From: a plasmid
Assembly: GCF_054482525.1 (NCBI RefSeq)
Contig: NZ_JBTHVG010000004.1
DNA length: 64,000 nucleotides
Strand: one strand, 5' to 3'
Both the position numbers and the translations under genes were made by a program. A model generated the notes under the pieces. That model had not been told where the DNA came from. It saw only the letters and a list, made by a program, of their open reading frames with translations, and did no database searches. Positions 1,981 to 41,723 of this stretch are shown here, piece after piece (position 1 is the first letter of the stretch; the number at the start of each line of letters is the position of its first letter).

Positions 1981-2265
1981 ATGCAAATGAAAAACAATAC
2001 CGCACAGGCAACAAAAGTAATTACCGCGCATGTGCCATTACCTATGGCTGATAAAGTCGACCAGATGGCCGCCAGACTGGAACGCTCCCGGGGCTGGATT
2101 ATCAAACAGGCGCTTTCTGCATGGCTTGCCCAGGAGGAGGAGCGTAATCGCCTGACGCTGGAAGCCCTGGACGATGTGACATCCGGACAGGTTATCGACC
2201 ATCAGGCTGTACAGGCCTGGGCGGACAGCCTCAGTACTGACAATCCGTTACCGGTGCCACGCTGA
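1981..2265 (+). CDS. RHH (CopG/RelB/ParD-like) antitoxin
   Basis: 94 aa; stop overlaps start of downstream RelE/ParE-like ORF (shared position 2265); small acidic C-terminus. Confidence 0.65.
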   Translation: MQMKNNTAQATKVITAHVPLPMADKVDQMAARLERSRGWIIKQALSAWLAQEEERNRLTLEALDDVTSGQVIDHQAVQAWADSLSTDNPLPVPR

Positions 2266-2540
2266 TGGAACTGAAGTGGACCAGTAAGGCGCTTTCTGAT
2301 TTGGCGCGGTTATATGATTTTCTGGTGCTGGCCAGTAAACCTGCGGCCGCCAGAACGGTGCAGTCCCTGACACAGGCTCCGGTCATTCTGTTAACTCATC
2401 CACGTATGGGGGAACAGTTATTTCAGTTTGAACCCAGGGAGGTCAGACGGATTTTTGCTGGCGAGTACGAAATCCGTTACGAACTTACTGGCCAGACTAT
2501 TTATGTATTGCGCCTGTGGCACACACGAGAAAACAGGTAG
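2265..2540 (+). CDS. RelE/ParE-family toxin
   Basis: 91 aa; translationally coupled to upstream RHH gene; C-terminal ...YVLRLWHTRE typical of RelE/ParE fold proteins. Confidence 0.7.
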   Translation: MELKWTSKALSDLARLYDFLVLASKPAAARTVQSLTQAPVILLTHPRMGEQLFQFEPREVRRIFAGEYEIRYELTGQTIYVLRLWHTRENR

Positions 2541-2645
2541 ATTGTGTGTGGGGACAACTTAACATAGCCTGCAGATATTAATTCTGGAACATTATTATCA
2601 GGCCAGATATTTTGCATTCCATTAAATAATCTTGTAGGAGATAAA

Positions 2646-2927
2646 ATGAATTACGATGAAATAACGAAAATTACCGCTGAACGTATTAGCGACTACATGA
2701 CTGAAGCAGTTAATACAGACTCTATAGCCGTTGCGGAAATGTTTCATAACGCTGCATGGGGAGTGCGAACATTGTGGTTTGAACTCGTCACAAAAATAGA
2801 TATAGATATACATAAAAAGAACAGGTATGCGAGTTATGATCTTAGAAGGAAAATCGAAATGCAGCATGAAGAGTTTCAGAAAATGACAGAGCGCGAGCAA
2901 GTGCCTTTATTGAAATCGCCAGAATAA
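2646..2927 (+). CDS. Hypothetical protein (AT-rich island)
   Basis: 93 aa ORF preceded by SD-like aggagataaaATG; AT-rich. Confidence 0.4.
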
Positions 2928-3118
2928 TAGAAACAGAACAAGTACATTGCTGTATTGTTTTTTCCTTGAATATTGAATCGCGGTGCCCATGTACTACGAT
3001 TCCTTTCGTGTCATTTATCATTGCACACTTTCCCTGACTGAGCGTAAAACACTGACTACTTTCCCCTCAAACTCCTGGACGGCGAATGCAAAATTGGTCT
3101 GTTCCAGCCTAGAATATG

Positions 3119-3388: not shown

Positions 3389-3918
3389 CTTATGCCTTTT
3401 TTATCTTCATTTGGGACCGTGCTTTTCTTCGGAGTATCATTATTCGTTAACTGCTGTTTATCAATAAAATTCCTGATGTTATCAAGTGCTTCCTTTGTTT
3501 TTAGAATGCGCTTGATATCCATTTCATCCCGCCCGGTCATTCTTTTTCCGGACAAAAGACGCTCAAGAAGCTCCTGTTTCGCATCAGGAGAATCTTTGGC
3601 GAGATCCATCAGGTTAAGCAAATCTTCACGATCGAGAGGAAAGAAGTATTTTACAAAATACTTGAAAAGCGAAAGAAAGTAGTATGCTGTCCATGCAATA
3701 CAGAAACCGATTCTGAGAAACTCATTGTCAACTATACAGAAATACAGGTATATAATCAGGAGAATAGGTAAAATCCATAATACTATAGCTAAAAAAATAT
3801 ATACGGGGATCAGGCGTCTGTATGCCCGTTCATGTTTATTTAGGATGAATAAAATCTTCTCCGCTTCTGAATCACACATAACATTCTCTTCCCATTTTTT
3901 CTGATACGTAATGTCCAC
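3385..3918 (-). CDS. Hypothetical membrane protein (two predicted TM helices, charged C-terminal domain)
   Basis: 177 aa; hydrophobic stretch LIPVYIFLAIVLWILPILLIIYLYFCIV followed by second hydrophobic segment. Confidence 0.45.
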   Translation of the reverse strand: MDITYQKKWEENVMCDSEAEKILFILNKHERAYRRLIPVYIFLAIVLWILPILLIIYLYFCIVDNEFLRIGFCIAWTAYYFLSLFKYFVKYFFPLDREDLLNLMDLAKDSPDAKQELLERLLSGKRMTGRDEMDIKRILKTKEALDNIRNFIDKQQLTNNDTPKKSTVPNEDKKGIR

Positions 3919-3934
3919 CTGTTATCAGGAGTGT

Positions 3935-4537
3935 TTATTGCCCAGAAATATTCTCCTGCTGTGCCTGCATCCTGAGCCACTTTTGTTCTAATGTCGCCAG
4001 TCTGCGACCGGCACTCTGTGCTTCAGAGTCTGAGACCTGCCCTTTGGGGTGACCATCCAGGCCATAACGTGGGACGCCGGCGACAGCTGTCCGCTGCAGA
4101 TATACGCGGCGGGATGTGATGCAGGACACTGCACAGAGCCATTCGTCCATGGTCAGTTCTGTCTCCGGGTGTTCTGCCAGAAATGCCGAAATATCATTGT
4201 TTATGCCAATTTTCAGGGGAATAAATCCACCACCTTCAGCACGAAGATGAGGAAACAGGGCCTTTATTTTTTCCACGCACTCGTGAGTATACTCACGGGT
4301 CCAGTGGGAGGGACGTGGAAAACGGTGTCTTTTCTTTTTCTTCTTCCTGGCTGGCGCTTCGGGGATATGTGTTTCGACGGCAGATGAATTTATTCCGGCG
4401 GGGGCTGATTCTGCCGTCTGTTCAGTAAATACAGGTGCGATAATATCTGTTTTTTCGGATAAGGACGGTGGCGAAAAAGTACGACGTTTTTTCACCACAA
4501 TGACGGGAGTTTTCCTTTCTTCCTGATATTTTCCCAT
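3935..4537 (-). CDS. finO: FinO/ProQ-family RNA chaperone-like protein
   Basis: 200 aa; Lys/Arg-rich N-terminal half and C-terminal region resembling FinO fold (..EWLCAVSCITSRRVYLQRTAVAGVPRYGLDG..). Confidence 0.6.
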   Translation of the reverse strand: MGKYQEERKTPVIVVKKRRTFSPPSLSEKTDIIAPVFTEQTAESAPAGINSSAVETHIPEAPARKKKKKRHRFPRPSHWTREYTHECVEKIKALFPHLRAEGGGFIPLKIGINNDISAFLAEHPETELTMDEWLCAVSCITSRRVYLQRTAVAGVPRYGLDGHPKGQVSDSEAQSAGRRLATLEQKWLRMQAQQENISGQ

Positions 4538-4712
4538 AAATACCTCGGCTATGTTGTTCTACTTCCTTATAATATCATAGTTCAAAATTTAATAAACTTT
4601 CTGTTATGTAATATCCCTTGATAATTTACGAAGATGACTCTGTACCCTGCTATGTGAATCAGGAACGTTTATAGCAGGATACAACGGATTGTTACTTACA
4701 CAGTAAGATTTA

Positions 4713-5765
4713 CTAAGGTTTGTTTTCTTCTTTTCTTATATTTATCTGGTAATCCTTATCAACAATGCCTGCTCTACTGTTTGCATTAATCATTGCTGGT
4801 CTGATCCATATTAGTTTGTTATTTTTCCTGCGAATATGTCCTCTGCGTAAGTGCATCCTTTTCGTCCCACCGGATTTTCCTGTTCCAGTATGATTACTTT
4901 GCACCTTAGTTTCAGACAGTTGCAATACTTTATAAGTATATGAAGGGCGCTTGTTTTTTTCAGGTGGCTGAACTTTACGACCATTTATGAATTTTCTTTC
5001 TGGTTTAGTGCTAAGTGTGACAGGACACACATTTTCGCAATTTAACACGCTACATGCCTGTATGAAAGCCTGTAGTTCATCGCGAGTATCCATAATAATT
5101 TGCGCATATAATCTTTCAATACTTCCCACCTGCTTTATCAAATCATCTTTAAATTCCATGCTTGTTATAAAAGGCTCTGCTTTGAAGTGTGCTGCATTAT
5201 ATTTGGCTACTCCATTCTCTTTTAATGTGTCGATTACAAGCCTGGATGCAGGCAATGTCCTGTCAGGTTCGTATTTAGTGAGTTTGTTGTTATATGGGAA
5301 AAACATTCCACCGACACCAAGAATCCATATTTTTAAATCATCAGACCATGAAACAGGAAGGATAAACACTCCGCCATCAATATAAGTGTTAAGGATTGAA
5401 TTACATCCCGGGATGGGTTCAAAACTCTGTCTGGCCTCCCAGCACAGGGCAATTCTTCTGGATGATGGTGATATATTAAAATCACCTATTTGGGTTTCTA
5501 CATTGTCTTTGAACCATGGTATTTCAAATGTTACAACTGGATATGGTAATCGTGCCAAATCGAAATGCGTCTGGCGGTATTCTTCTGGTTCAATAATATC
5601 GCAGCAGTTCGGTAAGATGAACTTAACACTACTGTCCAGCATATCAATGACCTGACGCATAATATATGATGTAAGAGGTGCATTTGACCTTAATCCTTTT
5701 TCCATGACAGACAGGTCTTTTATGGCTTCCTTAGTGTAATTTAGTGGAGTAATTGTATCTTTCAT
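4713..5765 (-). CDS. Hypothetical protein, AT-rich cargo; C-terminal basic motif shared with 39354..40445 product
   Basis: 350 aa; AT-rich relative to flanks; C-terminal TGKSGGTKRMHLRRGHIRRKNNKLIWIRP. Confidence 0.6.
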   Translation of the reverse strand: MKDTITPLNYTKEAIKDLSVMEKGLRSNAPLTSYIMRQVIDMLDSSVKFILPNCCDIIEPEEYRQTHFDLARLPYPVVTFEIPWFKDNVETQIGDFNISPSSRRIALCWEARQSFEPIPGCNSILNTYIDGGVFILPVSWSDDLKIWILGVGGMFFPYNNKLTKYEPDRTLPASRLVIDTLKENGVAKYNAAHFKAEPFITSMEFKDDLIKQVGSIERLYAQIIMDTRDELQAFIQACSVLNCENVCPVTLSTKPERKFINGRKVQPPEKNKRPSYTYKVLQLSETKVQSNHTGTGKSGGTKRMHLRRGHIRRKNNKLIWIRPAMINANSRAGIVDKDYQINIRKEENKP

Positions 5766-5977
5766 TACGTTTTCTCTGGATATCTGATTACTATACAGGT
5801 ACGGCTACTTACGTAGCTCTGCCACCAGAAATACTCAGCCAGTAGGTTCCTGGCTACGGCAGAAGATGTGTGGATTTAGCTCGTACACAGGAGGCTGTTA
5901 CAGGTATCCACGATACCTGAACTGACGATTATTCTTGGAAATAATCAGCCATCCGCGCCGCTTTACTCAGGCCCCCT

Positions 5978-6568
5978 TTACGGGACGCTACTTTCATTTA
6001 TCTGTACGCGAACCTCTATTCCTGCGTCATGACAGGCCTGCAGCCACTGCGCCACTTCCAGCGGATCGCCCTCCAGGCGTACCACCCTGCCTTCTTTATT
6101 CCATAACTGCAGACAGGTGCTGCCGTCGAGACGCACCACAAAATCCCCACGGCAGGCCTGATACGTTATGCCGTTCAGCTCCACCGCCAGATCAGTGGCA
6201 GAAGTGCCGTCTGCGGGCAGACCTGCTGCCGGGACCAGCGGCAGTACGACGACTTCTGCCGCACGCTGTTCTGCCCGGAGGCGGTCCTGTTCTGCCAGCA
6301 GCAGAGGCTGTGCCACGGCCCGGCCGGCGTCCGTCAGCTCCACTGCCAGCTGCAGGTTCGGAGCGCGCAGGGTACGCAGCCAGCCGGCATCCTCCAGACG
6401 ACGGCAGGAGGCGCGCAGGTTTGGCCCGTAGACCGGGGCTTCCCCGCTTCGCTCCAGCACCCGTTCTATGTCCCGCGTCAGCACGGGTCCCGGCCGTTTT
6501 TCATCAAGGGCAGCCAGCACAATCAGCACTCTCCGCTGCAGTGGCGACGGTCGGCGGCTCTGAGTCAT
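5978..6568 (-). CDS. Hypothetical protein with putative N-terminal winged-helix DNA-binding domain (GC-rich gene)
   Basis: 196 aa; start overlaps stop of 6568..6822 ORF; high GC; opposite-strand 255 aa ORF is Pro/Arg/Ala-rich and judged spurious. Confidence 0.5.
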   Translation of the reverse strand: MTQSRRPSPLQRRVLIVLAALDEKRPGPVLTRDIERVLERSGEAPVYGPNLRASCRRLEDAGWLRTLRAPNLQLAVELTDAGRAVAQPLLLAEQDRLRAEQRAAEVVVLPLVPAAGLPADGTSATDLAVELNGITYQACRGDFVVRLDGSTCLQLWNKEGRVVRLEGDPLEVAQWLQACHDAGIEVRVQINESSVP

Positions 6569-6822
6569 TAACTGTCACCCTCCGACCAGATGAGTTTTTT
6601 GAGGCGCTGATAATCGGTATCGATGCGTTCCCGGGCCTGTGCGTGATTGTTCTGTGGCGCACCATGAATGGCCAGTTCATACCACAACCACAGCAGAGCT
6701 GAGGCCCTCAGTTCATTGAGGCACCTGGCGCTCTGGCTGTCCAGCCCACATTCACGGATATTTTTTTCCGCTATTCGGGTCAACTGCTCATAGCTGAGTG
6801 AAAACACCCTTTCTTCATCCAT
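6568..6822 (-). CDS. Hypothetical small protein, first gene of a two-gene operon
   Basis: 84 aa; translationally coupled to downstream 196 aa gene; palindromic operator-like sequences just upstream. Confidence 0.45.
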   Translation of the reverse strand: MDEERVFSLSYEQLTRIAEKNIRECGLDSQSARCLNELRASALLWLWYELAIHGAPQNNHAQARERIDTDYQRLKKLIWSEGDS

Positions 6823-6865
6823 CCTGCATGCTCCATCTGATAATGTTCCGACAGCTAAAAATCAT

Positions 6866-6965
6866 ATCATGCATGATTTGTGTGCTCTTGATTTATGATA
6901 ATATCTGATATGGTTTTTTCATCAATGATGAAAATCATATCAGATATGATTTTATGTGTGTTTTT
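6866..6965. promoter_or_regulatory. Cluster of palindromes/inverted repeats (operator-like or recombination site)
   Basis: perfect palindrome atcatgcatgat; inverted repeats atatctgatat / atatcagatat; near-palindrome aaaatcatatcagatatgatttt. Confidence 0.4.
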
Positions 6966-7389
6966 TATTATCATATTATTTGCGTCTTTTCTGCCGCGCA
7001 GATCCGGTTTCCGGCGGTTACGGATCTCCCACTTCCCCCACACAACGCCACCTCCCGTCAGCACAACATGTGGTGCCTGATTCAGCTGCTGATGACACTA
7101 TATGTTGTGTCATCTCCCTGACCTGTGATGCGCCGCGCAGGGGCGGAAAACAGCGATATGATTATTTCCTCAGCGTGATACACTTCCGGAAAGTTGTGAT
7201 ATTCAGGAAAGTCGGATCTGACGGAAGCGGCTCTCCGGTAATTTAACGGCGTGGTTATATGGATGCTTGTTATCATGGTGATGATGATAACGGCATGATG
7301 TTATCAGACGGCGTGACGGTAAGGGCAGTGATGACGGATGACGTTATCGCATGACCGTCCCTGCCCGGAAAAGAAAAAAGGAGTCACCC

Positions 7390-13957: not shown

Positions 13958-14884
13958 ATGCCAAACTGGTGCTCAAATCGTATGCATTTTTCTGGTGAAC
14001 CGGCACAGATTGCTGAGATTAAACGACTGGCCAGCGGTGCAGTCACACCGCTTTATCGCCGCGCCACAAATGAAGGTATTCAGCTGTTTCTGGCCGGAAG
14101 TGCCGGACTTCTGCAGACCACTGAAGATGTGCGGTTTGAACCATGCCCCGGACTGACGGCTGCCGGGCGTGGCGTTGTATCGCCGGAGAATATCGCGTTC
14201 ACCCGCTGGCTGACATACCTGCAGGACGGTGTACTGCTGGATGAGCAAAACTGCCTGATGCTGCATAAACTCTGGCTGCAGAGCGGTACTGGACAGTGTC
14301 GCTGGGAAGGATTACCGGACGATGTCAGGGATACCATCACCGCACTTTTCACCGCAAAAAGAGGTGACTGGTGTGGCTTCTGGAGTAACGAGGATGTATC
14401 GGTGTGGTGGAACCGTCTGTGTGACAACGTACTGCCGGAAAAAACCATGCCGTTTGACCTGCTGACGGTTCTGCCCACCCGCCTGGATGTTGAAGTGAAT
14501 GGCTTTAACGGTGGTGTTCTGAACGGTGTTCCTTCTGCATATCACTGGTATACGGAACAGTATGGCGTGAAGTGGCCTGTGGGGTATGAGGTGAATATCA
14601 GTAGTCAGGGAGACAACTTCATTCAGGTGGATTTCGACACGCCGTGGTGTCAGCCGGAAAGCGACGTTATTGCAGAATTAAGCCGCCGTTTCAGCTGCAC
14701 GCTGGAGCACTGGTACGCCGAACAGGGCTGTGATTTCTGTGGCTGGCAGTTGTATGAGCGCGGAGAGCTCGTTGATGTGCTGTGGGGGGAACTGGAATGG
14801 TCTTCCCCGACAGATGACGATGAGCTGCCGGAAGTCACCGGACCTGCGTGGATAGTCGACAATGTGGCGCATTATGGCGGATGA
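13958..14884 (+). CDS. Hypothetical leading-region protein
   Basis: start at internal Met (MPNWCSN..) preceded by SD gagaggaga; Trp/Cys-rich. Confidence 0.5.
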   Translation: MPNWCSNRMHFSGEPAQIAEIKRLASGAVTPLYRRATNEGIQLFLAGSAGLLQTTEDVRFEPCPGLTAAGRGVVSPENIAFTRWLTYLQDGVLLDEQNCLMLHKLWLQSGTGQCRWEGLPDDVRDTITALFTAKRGDWCGFWSNEDVSVWWNRLCDNVLPEKTMPFDLLTVLPTRLDVEVNGFNGGVLNGVPSAYHWYTEQYGVKWPVGYEVNISSQGDNFIQVDFDTPWCQPESDVIAELSRRFSCTLEHWYAEQGCDFCGWQLYERGELVDVLWGELEWSSPTDDDELPEVTGPAWIVDNVAHYGG

Positions 14885-15268
14885 AGTATGACGGAGACGG
14901 GCGGGAAACCGCCCGTTTCTTTTCCGACAAAGGATGTCGCCGTGCTCCTCTTTTTACTGCGCCGGCTGACGCGGCGCGGCATAAACGCTGCCTGTGGTCA
15001 GTGTCCCGCGTCCGGCCGGGCACGGGACGGGCGCTTTTACCGCTCCCGGCTGGCATCGGTGACAGTGTACGCCAGCCCGTCGCCCTTTTCTGATGAACGC
15101 CCTTCAAGCCGCTTTCGCGGCATATTCTCGCCGTCAAAAAGACGACGGCTGCGATATTCCACGGTCGGCCTGACCCGTTACCGGACGCGGTGAACAGCCC
15201 ACAGGCAGCGGGGAACGGGCACCACAGGGGTGCCCTCCCGGTGCCCTCTGTAAGAGAAGGAGTTTCGT

Positions 15269-15952
15269 ATGTCCCGTTTTGTCCTCGGTAACTGCATCGA
15301 TGTTATGGCCCGTATTCCTGATAACGCCATTGATTTCATCCTCACCGACCCTCCATATCTCGTCGGTTTCCGTGACCGTTCCGGGCGCACCATCGCCGGC
15401 GATAAAACCGATGAGTGGCTGCAACCGGCCTGTAATGAAATGTTCCGCGTGCTGAAAAAAGACGCGTTAATGGTGAGCTTCTACGGCTGGAACCGCGTCG
15501 ATCGCTTTATGGCCGCCTGGAAAAATGCGGGATTCAGCGTTGTTGGTCACCTGGTCTTCACCAAAAACTACACATCGAAGGCCGCATATGTGGGCTATCG
15601 CCACGAATGCGCCTACATCCTGGCAAAAGGCCGTCCACGTCTGCCACAAAAACCGCTGCCGGACGTGCTGGGCTGGAAATATTCAGGCAATCATCATCAC
15701 CCGACGGAAAAGCCTGTTACCAGCCTGCAACCGCTGATTGAGAGCTTCACACACCCGAACGCAATTGTGCTGGACCCGTTTGCAGGCAGCGGCTCAACCT
15801 GCGTTGCAGCCCTCCAGTCCGGACGCCGGTATATCGGTATCGAGCTGCTTGAGCAGTATCACCGTGCCGGACAGCAACGACTGGCTGCCGTACAACGGGC
15901 CATGCAGCAGGGGGCCGCGAATGATGACTGGTTTATGCCGGAGGCTGCGTAA
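15269..15952 (+). CDS. Orphan DNA N6-adenine/N4-cytosine methyltransferase
   Basis: 227 aa; catalytic DPPY motif (LTDPPYL) near N-terminus, FAGSGST SAM-binding motif near C-terminus; no adjacent restriction gene. Confidence 0.8.
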   Translation: MSRFVLGNCIDVMARIPDNAIDFILTDPPYLVGFRDRSGRTIAGDKTDEWLQPACNEMFRVLKKDALMVSFYGWNRVDRFMAAWKNAGFSVVGHLVFTKNYTSKAAYVGYRHECAYILAKGRPRLPQKPLPDVLGWKYSGNHHHPTEKPVTSLQPLIESFTHPNAIVLDPFAGSGSTCVAALQSGRRYIGIELLEQYHRAGQQRLAAVQRAMQQGAANDDWFMPEAA

Positions 15953-16174
15953 ATGAACTATGCCGGACACGAAAAACTTCGCGCCGAAGTGGCGGAGGTG
16001 GCCAATGCCATGTGCGACCTGCGTACAACCATGAATGAGATGGAGCGGCGGTACAGCTTTAATGCTGACACCCTGCCGGAACGTCTGGTGCGTCAGACGT
16101 TGTTTCGCGCAAACCGCCTCCTGATGGAGGCATATACCGAAATTCTTGAACTGGATGCGTGCTTCAAAGATTAA
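15953..16174 (+). CDS. Hypothetical small protein
   Basis: 73 aa; start abuts methyltransferase stop. Confidence 0.45.
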   Translation: MNYAGHEKLRAEVAEVANAMCDLRTTMNEMERRYSFNADTLPERLVRQTLFRANRLLMEAYTEILELDACFKD

Positions 16175-39140: not shown

Positions 39141-39310
39141 ATAAAAGGATTGTTGCAGATACGAAAGTCGTTAGAATAGCCGCGGACGCTTGAGGCTGTA
39201 TGCCGAAAGCGTTTTGTGGATGGTATACAGCAGAAAGCCCCCTGGAGATTTTTTATCAATCAACCAGGGGCTCTACTGTAATGCCTAGACAACATTATAG
39301 TAGCCTGATA
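39141..39310 (+). repeat. Truncated upstream copy of the pnd (hok/sok-type) leader, direct repeat of 40562-40731
   Basis: about 170 bp roughly 93 percent identical to the leader in front of pndA; contains the mok-frame start atgccgaaagcg but diverges just before the pndA SD. Confidence 0.6.
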
Positions 39311-39353
39311 ATTTAGATATGTGTACATCCTACCGGAAAAGATACTTTTCAGG

Positions 39354-40445
39354 TCATTTATCAATGGGTGTTATTACCACCGGTAGTTTGTTTACGTCTT
39401 CTAAATTAACTGGTACCGGAGGTAACCATATTAATCTAGGTTTACGCTCATGGGCTAGTTCTGGTTTCTTACTTCCTGTCCAGTATGTATGCCAGTGTCC
39501 CCGGCGTATATGAGGACGTTTGCTACCTATTGTTGTCCGCTCTTTCCCTGTGGGTTCTGCTTGGCGATATTGCCGTATGGCTTGCCCCATTCGAATACCA
39601 ACGTCCCACTCCCGAATGTTTTGTGCTGGTAGTTCATGGTGAGTGTGAACATGCTTTTTGTGCTTTTCTGACCGTTTAAATTGATTTTTTTCTTTTATAT
39701 CATTGATCTGTGAACAGATATAAAGCACCATTGATATCTGTGCGTTAAGAAGATTAAACTCCCTGTCTCTGAAATCTTTGAGCTTTTCGTTAACTGTTAC
39801 GACGACTTCACCATCGATACACTCCATCTTTCTGGAGTCAAGAAGTCCTTCACGAGAGTCCTTTATTCTGATGATATTATTGACGACGTCAACATCCTTT
39901 TCTTTTAGCCCTGTAGTTCCTTGACTTTGTTTCAGATCATCAATAATGAAAAGCCGGATAATATTTCCATTATTGTCCAAAAATGGATAAAAGAAAAATC
40001 CATGTATCGGATAGGACGTAGGAAGTATAGTATGCAGATTTTCGGCTGAAACATAGATACTCCATGAAGGGAGTTCCTTGAGGATCTGTGCAGGAATGTT
40101 ATCAACATAGGTGTTAGCCACATCACTGATGATGTCCTCGCTTAGGCGATAAATTTTCTTTGTATAGCGCCAGTATATAAAACACAAAATACTGTGTGGT
40201 GACGATAATTCGTTTCCATGAAATAAAGATTCTAGTTTAGAAGCCAGTTCTTCATTTTTTTGTTGGCTCTGGAGACGACTCATTAGTATGCGTTCTTCAT
40301 CTTTTCTGTCGATAAATAATAATGGATTGTCGCTGCGTTTTTTATTTCGGCATGCAAAGATTTGCTCTTCAAGCCCAGGGATTGTGTTGATGACTTTTTT
40401 TATCTTTTTCAGGAAAATAGGTTGTTTTAACTGCGACATTTCCAT
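39354..40445 (-). CDS. Hypothetical protein, AT-rich cargo; C-terminal motif shared with 4713..5765 product
   Basis: 363 aa; SD aggagatggaaATG; C-terminal TGKERTTIGSKRPHIRRGHWHTYW...RLIWLPPVPVN. Confidence 0.6.
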   Translation of the reverse strand: MEMSQLKQPIFLKKIKKVINTIPGLEEQIFACRNKKRSDNPLLFIDRKDEERILMSRLQSQQKNEELASKLESLFHGNELSSPHSILCFIYWRYTKKIYRLSEDIISDVANTYVDNIPAQILKELPSWSIYVSAENLHTILPTSYPIHGFFFYPFLDNNGNIIRLFIIDDLKQSQGTTGLKEKDVDVVNNIIRIKDSREGLLDSRKMECIDGEVVVTVNEKLKDFRDREFNLLNAQISMVLYICSQINDIKEKNQFKRSEKHKKHVHTHHELPAQNIREWDVGIRMGQAIRQYRQAEPTGKERTTIGSKRPHIRRGHWHTYWTGSKKPELAHERKPRLIWLPPVPVNLEDVNKLPVVITPIDK

Positions 40446-40561: not shown

Positions 40562-40731
40562 ATAAAAGGATTGTTACAGATACGAAAGTCGTTAGAATAG
40601 CTGCGGGCGCTTGAGGCTGTATGCCGAAAGCGTTTTGTGGACGGTATACAGCAGAAAGCCCCTGGAGATTTTTTTATCAATCAACCAAGGGCTCTACTGT
40701 AATGCCTCAACAACATTATAGTAGCCCGATA
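40562..40731 (+). repeat. pnd leader copy 2 (functional copy upstream of pndA)
   Basis: direct repeat of 39141-39310. Confidence 0.6.
40570..40640 (-). ncRNA. pndB: Putative PndB (Sok-like) antisense RNA region
   Basis: inferred only from hok/sok organisation (antisense to leader around the mok start); no promoter mapped. Confidence 0.25.
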
Positions 40732-40905
40732 ACCGCCGGAAGGCAATGGAGGGGCTATGATGCCACAGCGAACGTTTTTAATGATGTTAATCGTCGTCTG
40801 TGTGACGATTCTGTGTTTTGTCTGGATGGTGAGGGATTCGCTTTGCGGACTCCGGCTCCAGCAGGGAAACACAGTGCTTGTGGCAACGTTAGCCTACGAA
40901 GTTAA
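40621..40905 (+). CDS. pndC: PndC (Mok-like overlapping leader frame)
   Basis: 94 aa frame overlapping pndA in +1 register, as in mok/hok. Confidence 0.45.
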   Translation: MPKAFCGRYTAESPWRFFYQSTKGSTVMPQQHYSSPITAGRQWRGYDATANVFNDVNRRLCDDSVFCLDGEGFALRTPAPAGKHSACGNVSLRS

Positions 40906-40912
40906 ACGTTAA
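40757..40912 (+). CDS. pndA: PndA, Hok-family type I toxin
   Basis: manual translation MMPQRTFLMMLIVVCVTILCFVWMVRDSLCGLRLQQGNTVLVATLAYEVKR; SD ggagg; not in ORF track because under 60 aa. Confidence 0.85.
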   Translation: MMPQRTFLMMLIVVCVTILCFVWMVRDSLCGLRLQQGNTVLVATLAYEVKR

Positions 40913-41235: not shown

Positions 41236-41388
41236 CGGATTTTCTCTCTGTATTTATGGGTAGTTATCGAACTGAATGTGCCAGTTTTTTCAGGAGACGG
41301 CAAAGTTGAGATGATTGGTTCTGATTCAAAGCATGAGTTTCCCCGGTGTGACGGGCATGTCGGGCGGATTTTGAGAAACAACAGATGT

Positions 41389-41419
41389 AAAAAAACCGAC
41401 TGGTGAGGTCGGTTTTTTT
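41389..41419. terminator. Bidirectional terminator-like hairpin
   Basis: aaaaaaaccgac-tggtgag-gtcggttttttt. Confidence 0.5.
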
Positions 41420-41723
41420 ACTGTTCCGTTACAGAGTGGGTGGCTCTGGTCGGAAAAGAACTGTCTATAACTGACTTGTAGATAGTACGTCTGGAATTAT
41501 ATTTCTGCAAGTACTGGATAAGTGTATACTCGGCATGTCAGCTCTGAGGCATGTTCTGTCCGACATATTGTTCAGCGGGAAGAACAGGTTGCAAGTCCTG
41601 GCCAAAACATCAGGTGGTGCTGGTTTTGGTGCTCTGGTCGGAGAAGAACTGTCTATAACTGACACTATAGAAACCGTTGTGACAGGCAGTGTAAGAGCGA
41701 ACAACGGGGTTCTTTCTCCAGTG

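Follow-up and report, generated by a model that had tools for sequence, protein, structure and literature searches.

[quoted passage not shown] Residues H286, R288 and H291 are needed for mRNA loss but dispensable for binding, and members of the family resemble one another mainly in the C-terminal domain and differ at the N-terminus (bioRxiv 10.1101/2022.11.29.518452). Members are found in many mobile elements, usually without Cas12a, and FinQ of the I-like plasmids is a homologue (bioRxiv 10.1101/2022.11.29.518452). The source for the mechanism is this one preprint, and the mRNA degradation machinery is still unknown according to a 2026 review. FinQ itself has been described as lowering the transcripts of the F tra operon.

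Here we describe ORF1, a gene of a conjugative IncI-complex plasmid, within a window of 64,000 nucleotides (the whole stretch of DNA that was analysed). Bases 4400-6000 of the window are 100% identical to Escherichia coli plasmid pI_050613 (NZ_CP019215.2) and to many others. It is very probable that ORF1 belongs to the AcrVA2/FinQ superfamily as a highly divergent member, and finQ is present some 35 kb away on the same plasmid. The features discussed below are as follows.

3935..4537, minus strand: yafB (IncI1 nomenclature), a finO-like gene of the ProQ/FinO family by annotation, kept in plasmids without ORF1.
4602..5976 (roughly), no strand: AT-rich cargo segment of ~1.4 kb (39.3% GC) containing ORF1, between yafB and the ydeA/ydfA block, delimited by megablast and GC content.
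4713..5765, minus strand: ORF1 (WP_000655519.1), a 350-aa coding sequence with an ATG start, encoding a very probable, divergent member of the AcrVA2/FinQ superfamily.
4716..5120, minus strand: conserved C-terminal module of ORF1, residues 216-350 (a long helix ending IQACSVLNC, beta strands, HxRRGH and WIRP).
4836..4859, minus strand: HxRRGH motif of ORF1, R303-M-H305-L-R307-R308-G-H310, from a motif scan; equivalent to AcrVA2 H286/R288/H291.
5121..5765, minus strand: N-terminal body of ORF1, residues 1-215, a putative target-recognition part with a confident AF2 fold and fast divergence.
39354..40445, minus strand: finQ, 363 aa, a distant paralogue of ORF1; fertility-inhibition protein and AcrVA2 homologue at the sequence level.
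39495..39518, minus strand: HxRRGH motif of FinQ (KRPHIRRGH), from a motif scan and alignment to AcrVA2.

The initial annotation had described an AT-rich reading frame of 350 aa next to finO, and in these respects it was accurate: the frame is present on the minus strand with its C-terminus exactly as quoted, its GC content is 38.0% against 51.1% for the window, with merely 1.7% of 1053-bp windows equally AT-rich, and the gene directly downstream is annotated as ProQ/FINO family. A functional tie between ORF1 and this finO-like neighbour was considered and rejected, because yafB is conserved independently of ORF1. A promoter/terminator scan gave no convincing promoter for ORF1 in the 212-bp upstream spacer and identified, following ydeA, a hairpin at 5856-5836 that resembles a terminator. 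In the interval separating ORF1 from yafB we note by eye an 8-bp perfect stem (4646-4678, minus strand; CCTGCTAT / ATAGCAGG) with a 17-nt loop and no T-run, about 35 nt past the ORF1 stop codon, which could serve in RNA processing or stability or act as a weak terminator. On the other side, the ydeA/ydfA-like genes (5978-6822, minus strand) have GC contents of 64% and 52% and abut the 38% GC ORF1 segment, and homologous DNA turns up in over 3,700 plasmids, some of them with records 150-300 kb long, which suggests a mosaic junction.

When positions 3900-7000 are compared by megablast, most plasmids match either query positions 1-702 (yafB) or 2078-3101 (ydeA/ydfA) alone, and in 188 records a single place accounts for 80% or more of the query. 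The initial annotation had proposed a comparison with reference IncI1 plasmids, and the two compared, ColIb-P9 and pS122, both lack ORF1 and carry at its position yagA, a 449-aa gene on the opposite strand after yafB. ORF1 is cargo, replacing the yagA of ColIb-P9-type plasmids. The site lies in the repZ-rfsF accessory region, which holds variable cargo including IncI1 phage-inhibition genes such as ibfA. ORF1 occurs in 224 PLSDB plasmids, mostly conjugative (at least 99% identity in 215), and in 135 of 5426 complete E. coli genomes, where 137 of 141 places are on plasmids. Since finQ is found in 518 plasmids and a concatenated query of the two genes matches 727 records, about 15 plasmids carry both, and the joint presence of ORF1 and finQ in the window is an unusual combination.

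The wider family is also carried by mobile elements, with members in ICEs, genomic islands and plasmids. In ICE transfer clusters, relatives of ORF1 sit between traC and DUF1525-traU and may point either way; others are located at the termini of islands that carry an integrase, and an IncFII-type plasmid is a further location. Two homologues with 63% identity (L003, 8001-9056; L014, 7001-8047) occupy the same slot between traC (TraC_F_IV) and DUF1525-traU in different enterobacteria, one co-directional with the transfer cluster and the other inverted, and the slot looks like a cargo hotspot inside the transfer operon. In a Serratia marcescens island (L010, 4853-9095) the homologue comes directly after genes for ArdC (ArdcN + MPTase-PolyVal), a CbtA toxin, a DUF1281 protein and an orphan N6-methylase. 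A DUF1281 and methylase pair is also annotated in pI_050613, at the place corresponding to window positions 13983-15953, where that plasmid is collinear with the window.

The second gene, at 39354..40445, is finQ, encoding the IncI1 fertility inhibitor of F known from R820a/R62 and a published AcrVA2 homologue. Its product is found, as an exact match, in a cluster of 829 sequences named 'protein finQ' and is annotated as finQ in plasmid records, the GC content of the gene is 39.0% against 51.1% in the window, and the protein aligns with the crystallised AcrVA2 sequence (PDB 7CI1) with E=3.9e-17, the segment KRPHIRRGHWH included. The surroundings of finQ present several further observations. 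A 171-nt direct repeat (92% identity, spacing 1421 nt) brackets the gene at 39141-39311 and 40562-40732; each copy matches the Rfam sok family RF01794 (39184-39341 at 84.6 bits and 40605-40762 at 132.8 bits), and a Hok/PndA-like reading frame (40757..40912, plus strand) follows the second copy only. It seems that the finQ cassette either entered the pnd/hok-sok locus by insertion or duplicated a portion of it; in pI_050613 an unrelated 328-aa gene is found at this site instead. A match to the Rfam AgrB antisense RNA (RF02891, 53.7 bits) at 41387-41474 on the minus strand lies near the region where pI_050613 has an annotated DinQ-like type I toxin (dqlB), and with the AgrB/dqlB locus the plasmid would have, in addition to pnd, another type I toxin-antitoxin locus.

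That the C-termini of the two products align had been claimed from the window itself, and the claim stands: BLASTP of ORF1 against FinQ gives one significant segment, residues 289-327 against 295-347, with 30% identity and E=5e-4 (single comparison), and comparison of family profiles by hhalign (35 ORF1-family sequences, alignment A1, and 21 FinQ-family sequences, A2) gives a probability of 88.6% and E=2.6e-6 for 38 columns surrounding the motif. The pattern H.RR[GA]H, sought in six frames over the entire window, is present in ORF1 and FinQ only, with a chance expectation of about 0.01 matches (a rough estimate from residue frequencies). The initial interpretation was right to this extent, that the two genes are paralogous conflict-type cargo.

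The weak N-terminal similarity that had also been claimed lacks significance at the sequence level and finds support in structure. A FinQ-family HMM matches ORF1-family proteins at the C-terminus alone, with no bridge via the N-terminal part, and a low-stringency hhalign of the two families reaches 257 columns with near-zero confidence in the extension, so that its pairings (LPxPCVxFExP with LPEWCIYIxTP, GVF with GFF, and IQACS with LYICS) are a hint only. In the alignment of FinQ with AcrVA2, residues W92, R93, T95 and Y99 are conserved in a WRxT..IYRFD block (W79 and D89 are important in AcrVA2), and in the low-stringency alignment this block is left unaligned in ORF1; a candidate counterpart, SVKFILPN with invariant K48 and F49, is suggested by secondary-structure order only. 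Judging from these sequence comparisons, the homology of ORF1 outside the C-terminus is remote.

The initial annotation recognised no family for ORF1; the family is in fact already catalogued as PF26125 ('AcrVA2-like'). A precomputed PF26125 assignment is present on the ORF1 cluster and on many of 334 homologues, marked weak on five of them, and is carried by all FinQ homologues; by sequence models, ORF1 is a member of the AcrVA2-like superfamily, weakly. RefSeq labels WP_000655519.1 a 'hypothetical protein' in most records and an 'AcrVA2 family anti-CRISPR protein' in newer ones (NZ_CP135699.1, NZ_JBYYIV010000003.1), a name that must derive from another rule, since NCBIfam (release 20) gave no match to ORF1. 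PF26125 or WP_000655519 is mentioned in no paper that we found. Searches of PDB sequences did not reach AcrVA2 from ORF1 alone or from the 35-sequence profile A1, and a Pfam-A scan yielded no AcrVA2-like match for ORF1, the same copy of Pfam-A giving nothing even for FinQ; a Tepsin match of 23 residues in that scan is spurious. ORF1 is by far more diverged from AcrVA2 than is FinQ.

ORF1 residues H305, R307 and H310 align with AcrVA2 H286, R288 and H291 (AcrVA2 segment KRPHIRRGHWH). RMHLRRGH is invariant in 35 of 35 close homologues, it forms the most conserved block (at least 90% conserved) of a 127-sequence alignment, and HxRRGH is present in 115 of 122 family representatives. The AF2 model of ORF1 has pLDDT values mostly above 85 over residues 10-250, with the motif region poorly modelled, and the predicted structure has an AcrVA2-like three-dimensional fold. 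Foldseek of ORF1 against the PDB returned noise only, with class II tRNA-synthetase matches at a probability of 0.1 or less, which were rejected. We note separately that broken ORF1 alleles losing HxRRGH, truncated or frameshifted, recur and are common in public data: a 317-aa allele (P0125, 31 contigs) switches frame at an A7 run (window about 4955-4962, codons about 268-271), a 180-aa truncation (P0123) is present in 136 contigs, and an insertion-disrupted 361-aa form (P0003) in 6 contigs. These could reflect genuine inactivation or homopolymer sequencing errors.

A search with profile A1 recovers 6463 representatives of 50%-identity clusters at E<=1e-3, 2785 at E<=1e-10 and 232 at E<=1e-30. 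The profile was cut between residues 215 and 216 and each piece was scored on 122 representatives: the N-part (residues 1-215) drops from 1.3 bits per position to 0.15, and the C-part (residues 216-350) remains close to 0.8 over the same sequences, a pattern in keeping with an unchanging effector module linked to a recognition body that evolves fast. By analogy with AcrVA2, the N-terminal body of ORF1 would recognise the target. The N-part is well conserved too when only close homologues are compared (43-72% identity, spanning Enterobacteria, Ralstonia, Methylibium and Xanthomonas), which suggests from sequence that this clade may have one common target.

The reading we favour, and hold to be rather probable when superfamily and mechanism are taken together, is that ORF1 works in the manner of AcrVA2/FinQ, as a peptide-directed silencer that acts on one specific gene, and that its target is other than Cas12a. 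On the analogy of AcrVA2 and of the reports on FinQ, the N-terminal and middle body, which is folded, would attach to a short peptide belonging to a single target protein, probably while that protein emerges from the ribosome, and the C-terminal module with its invariant HxRRGH would then cause loss of the target mRNA, so that the gene is silenced. Cas12a would not be the target because the enterobacterial hosts typically do not have it (Marino et al., bioRxiv 10.1101/2022.11.29.518452), and the target is probably not that of FinQ because the recognition part is unrelated in sequence. Mobile elements are always the carriers of this gene, and for that reason we expect its target most likely to be either some function of a competing mobile element, which would amount to fertility inhibition, or a protein of host defence.

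A broader form of this proposal can be put forward tentatively, namely that the AcrVA2/FinQ superfamily contains a large clade, defined by ORF1 and hitherto unstudied, whose members are nascent-peptide-directed silencers of a widely conserved non-CRISPR target. The conservation of the recognition body in close homologues from Enterobacteria to Burkholderiales and Xanthomonas would imply such a target, candidates being a defence or conjugation protein of common occurrence and a host function. If this is true, plasmids with both FinQ and ORF1 hold two silencers of different specificities.

The two rival readings that merit most attention differ in target only. ORF1 could be a FinQ-like fertility inhibitor that lowers transfer-gene expression of a co-resident conjugative plasmid (IncF or other), and so a special case of peptide-directed silencing by the same mechanism; it might even account for one of the fertility-inhibition phenotypes described long ago for IncI plasmids and never mapped, such as FinU of JR66a, genetically defined and unsequenced. 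FinQ is its closest characterised plasmid relative and resides on the same plasmid backbone, and ORF1 homologues are embedded in ICE transfer-gene clusters. The N-terminal body is nevertheless conserved as far as Ralstonia, Methylibium and Xanthomonas (43-46% identity), where F-like plasmids are atypical, and ORF1 and finQ seldom co-occur, so that on balance we regard this as unlikely.

Equally unlikely is that ORF1 is an Acr-like anti-defence factor which silences a host immune gene (Cas, restriction or other) and aids plasmid establishment. AcrVA2, the founder of the family, is an anti-CRISPR, the newer RefSeq name says the same of ORF1, and conservation of the target-binding part in beta- and gamma-proteobacteria fits a widespread host target. 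The set of genes preceding the Serratia homologue is typical of anti-restriction or leading regions, but such a context is seen in one of seven homologue contexts only, and ORF1 itself is ~25 kb away from oriT, nikA being at about 30.4 kb, and does not belong to the ardA-psiB-ssb leading block. Moreover, defence proteins already present would be untouched by silencing of new synthesis (Marino et al., bioRxiv 10.1101/2022.11.29.518452), and tblastn against phage records turned up no homologue. The 'anti-CRISPR' of the RefSeq name is probably a functional misnomer in these hosts.

The initial suggestion of a HEPN-type RNase or single-protein abortive-infection toxin with a catalytic R-x6-H is very unlikely, for although the R303...H310 spacing exists and ORF1, like these proteins, is AT-rich cargo (in the repZ-rfsF region that is home to phage-inhibition genes), the likeness is superficial: there is no profile or fold match, ORF1 matching none of the PADLOC-DB defence and abortive-infection families at E<=1, the motif does not lie in an all-helical HEPN domain and its context and predicted secondary structure differ, and the arginine and histidine are accounted for by the HxRRGH of the AcrVA2 family.

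ORF1 is thus an uncharacterised and very divergent member of an already catalogued family, and an abundant example on the well-studied IncI plasmids of E. coli, Salmonella and Shigella, which are of FinQ's backbone type and genetically tractable. As a peptide-directed silencer it would offer a tractable route to what AcrVA2-like proteins target in bacteria without Cas12a, and its target, once found, would test the mechanism as a general, retargetable weapon between mobile elements or of plasmid against host and would reveal the benefit to IncI plasmids. Among described families, PHROG 6160, a phage family of unknown function, shares a C-terminal profile region with both plasmid proteins; the match of FinQ is strong (1e-47), whereas that of ORF1 (residues 228-328 against 208-318, E=0.26), its sole match in PHROGs, is not significant by itself. 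The closest comparison is with FinQ, of which ORF1 is a paralogue and not an orthologue, since the alignment is limited to 53 residues at 30% identity and the locus differs, ORF1 lying by yafB and not in the trbA-pnd interval of IncI1 plasmids. The two nonetheless have in common a superfamily, a motif and a plasmid type, both are AT-rich cargo, and the order of their secondary-structure elements corresponds.
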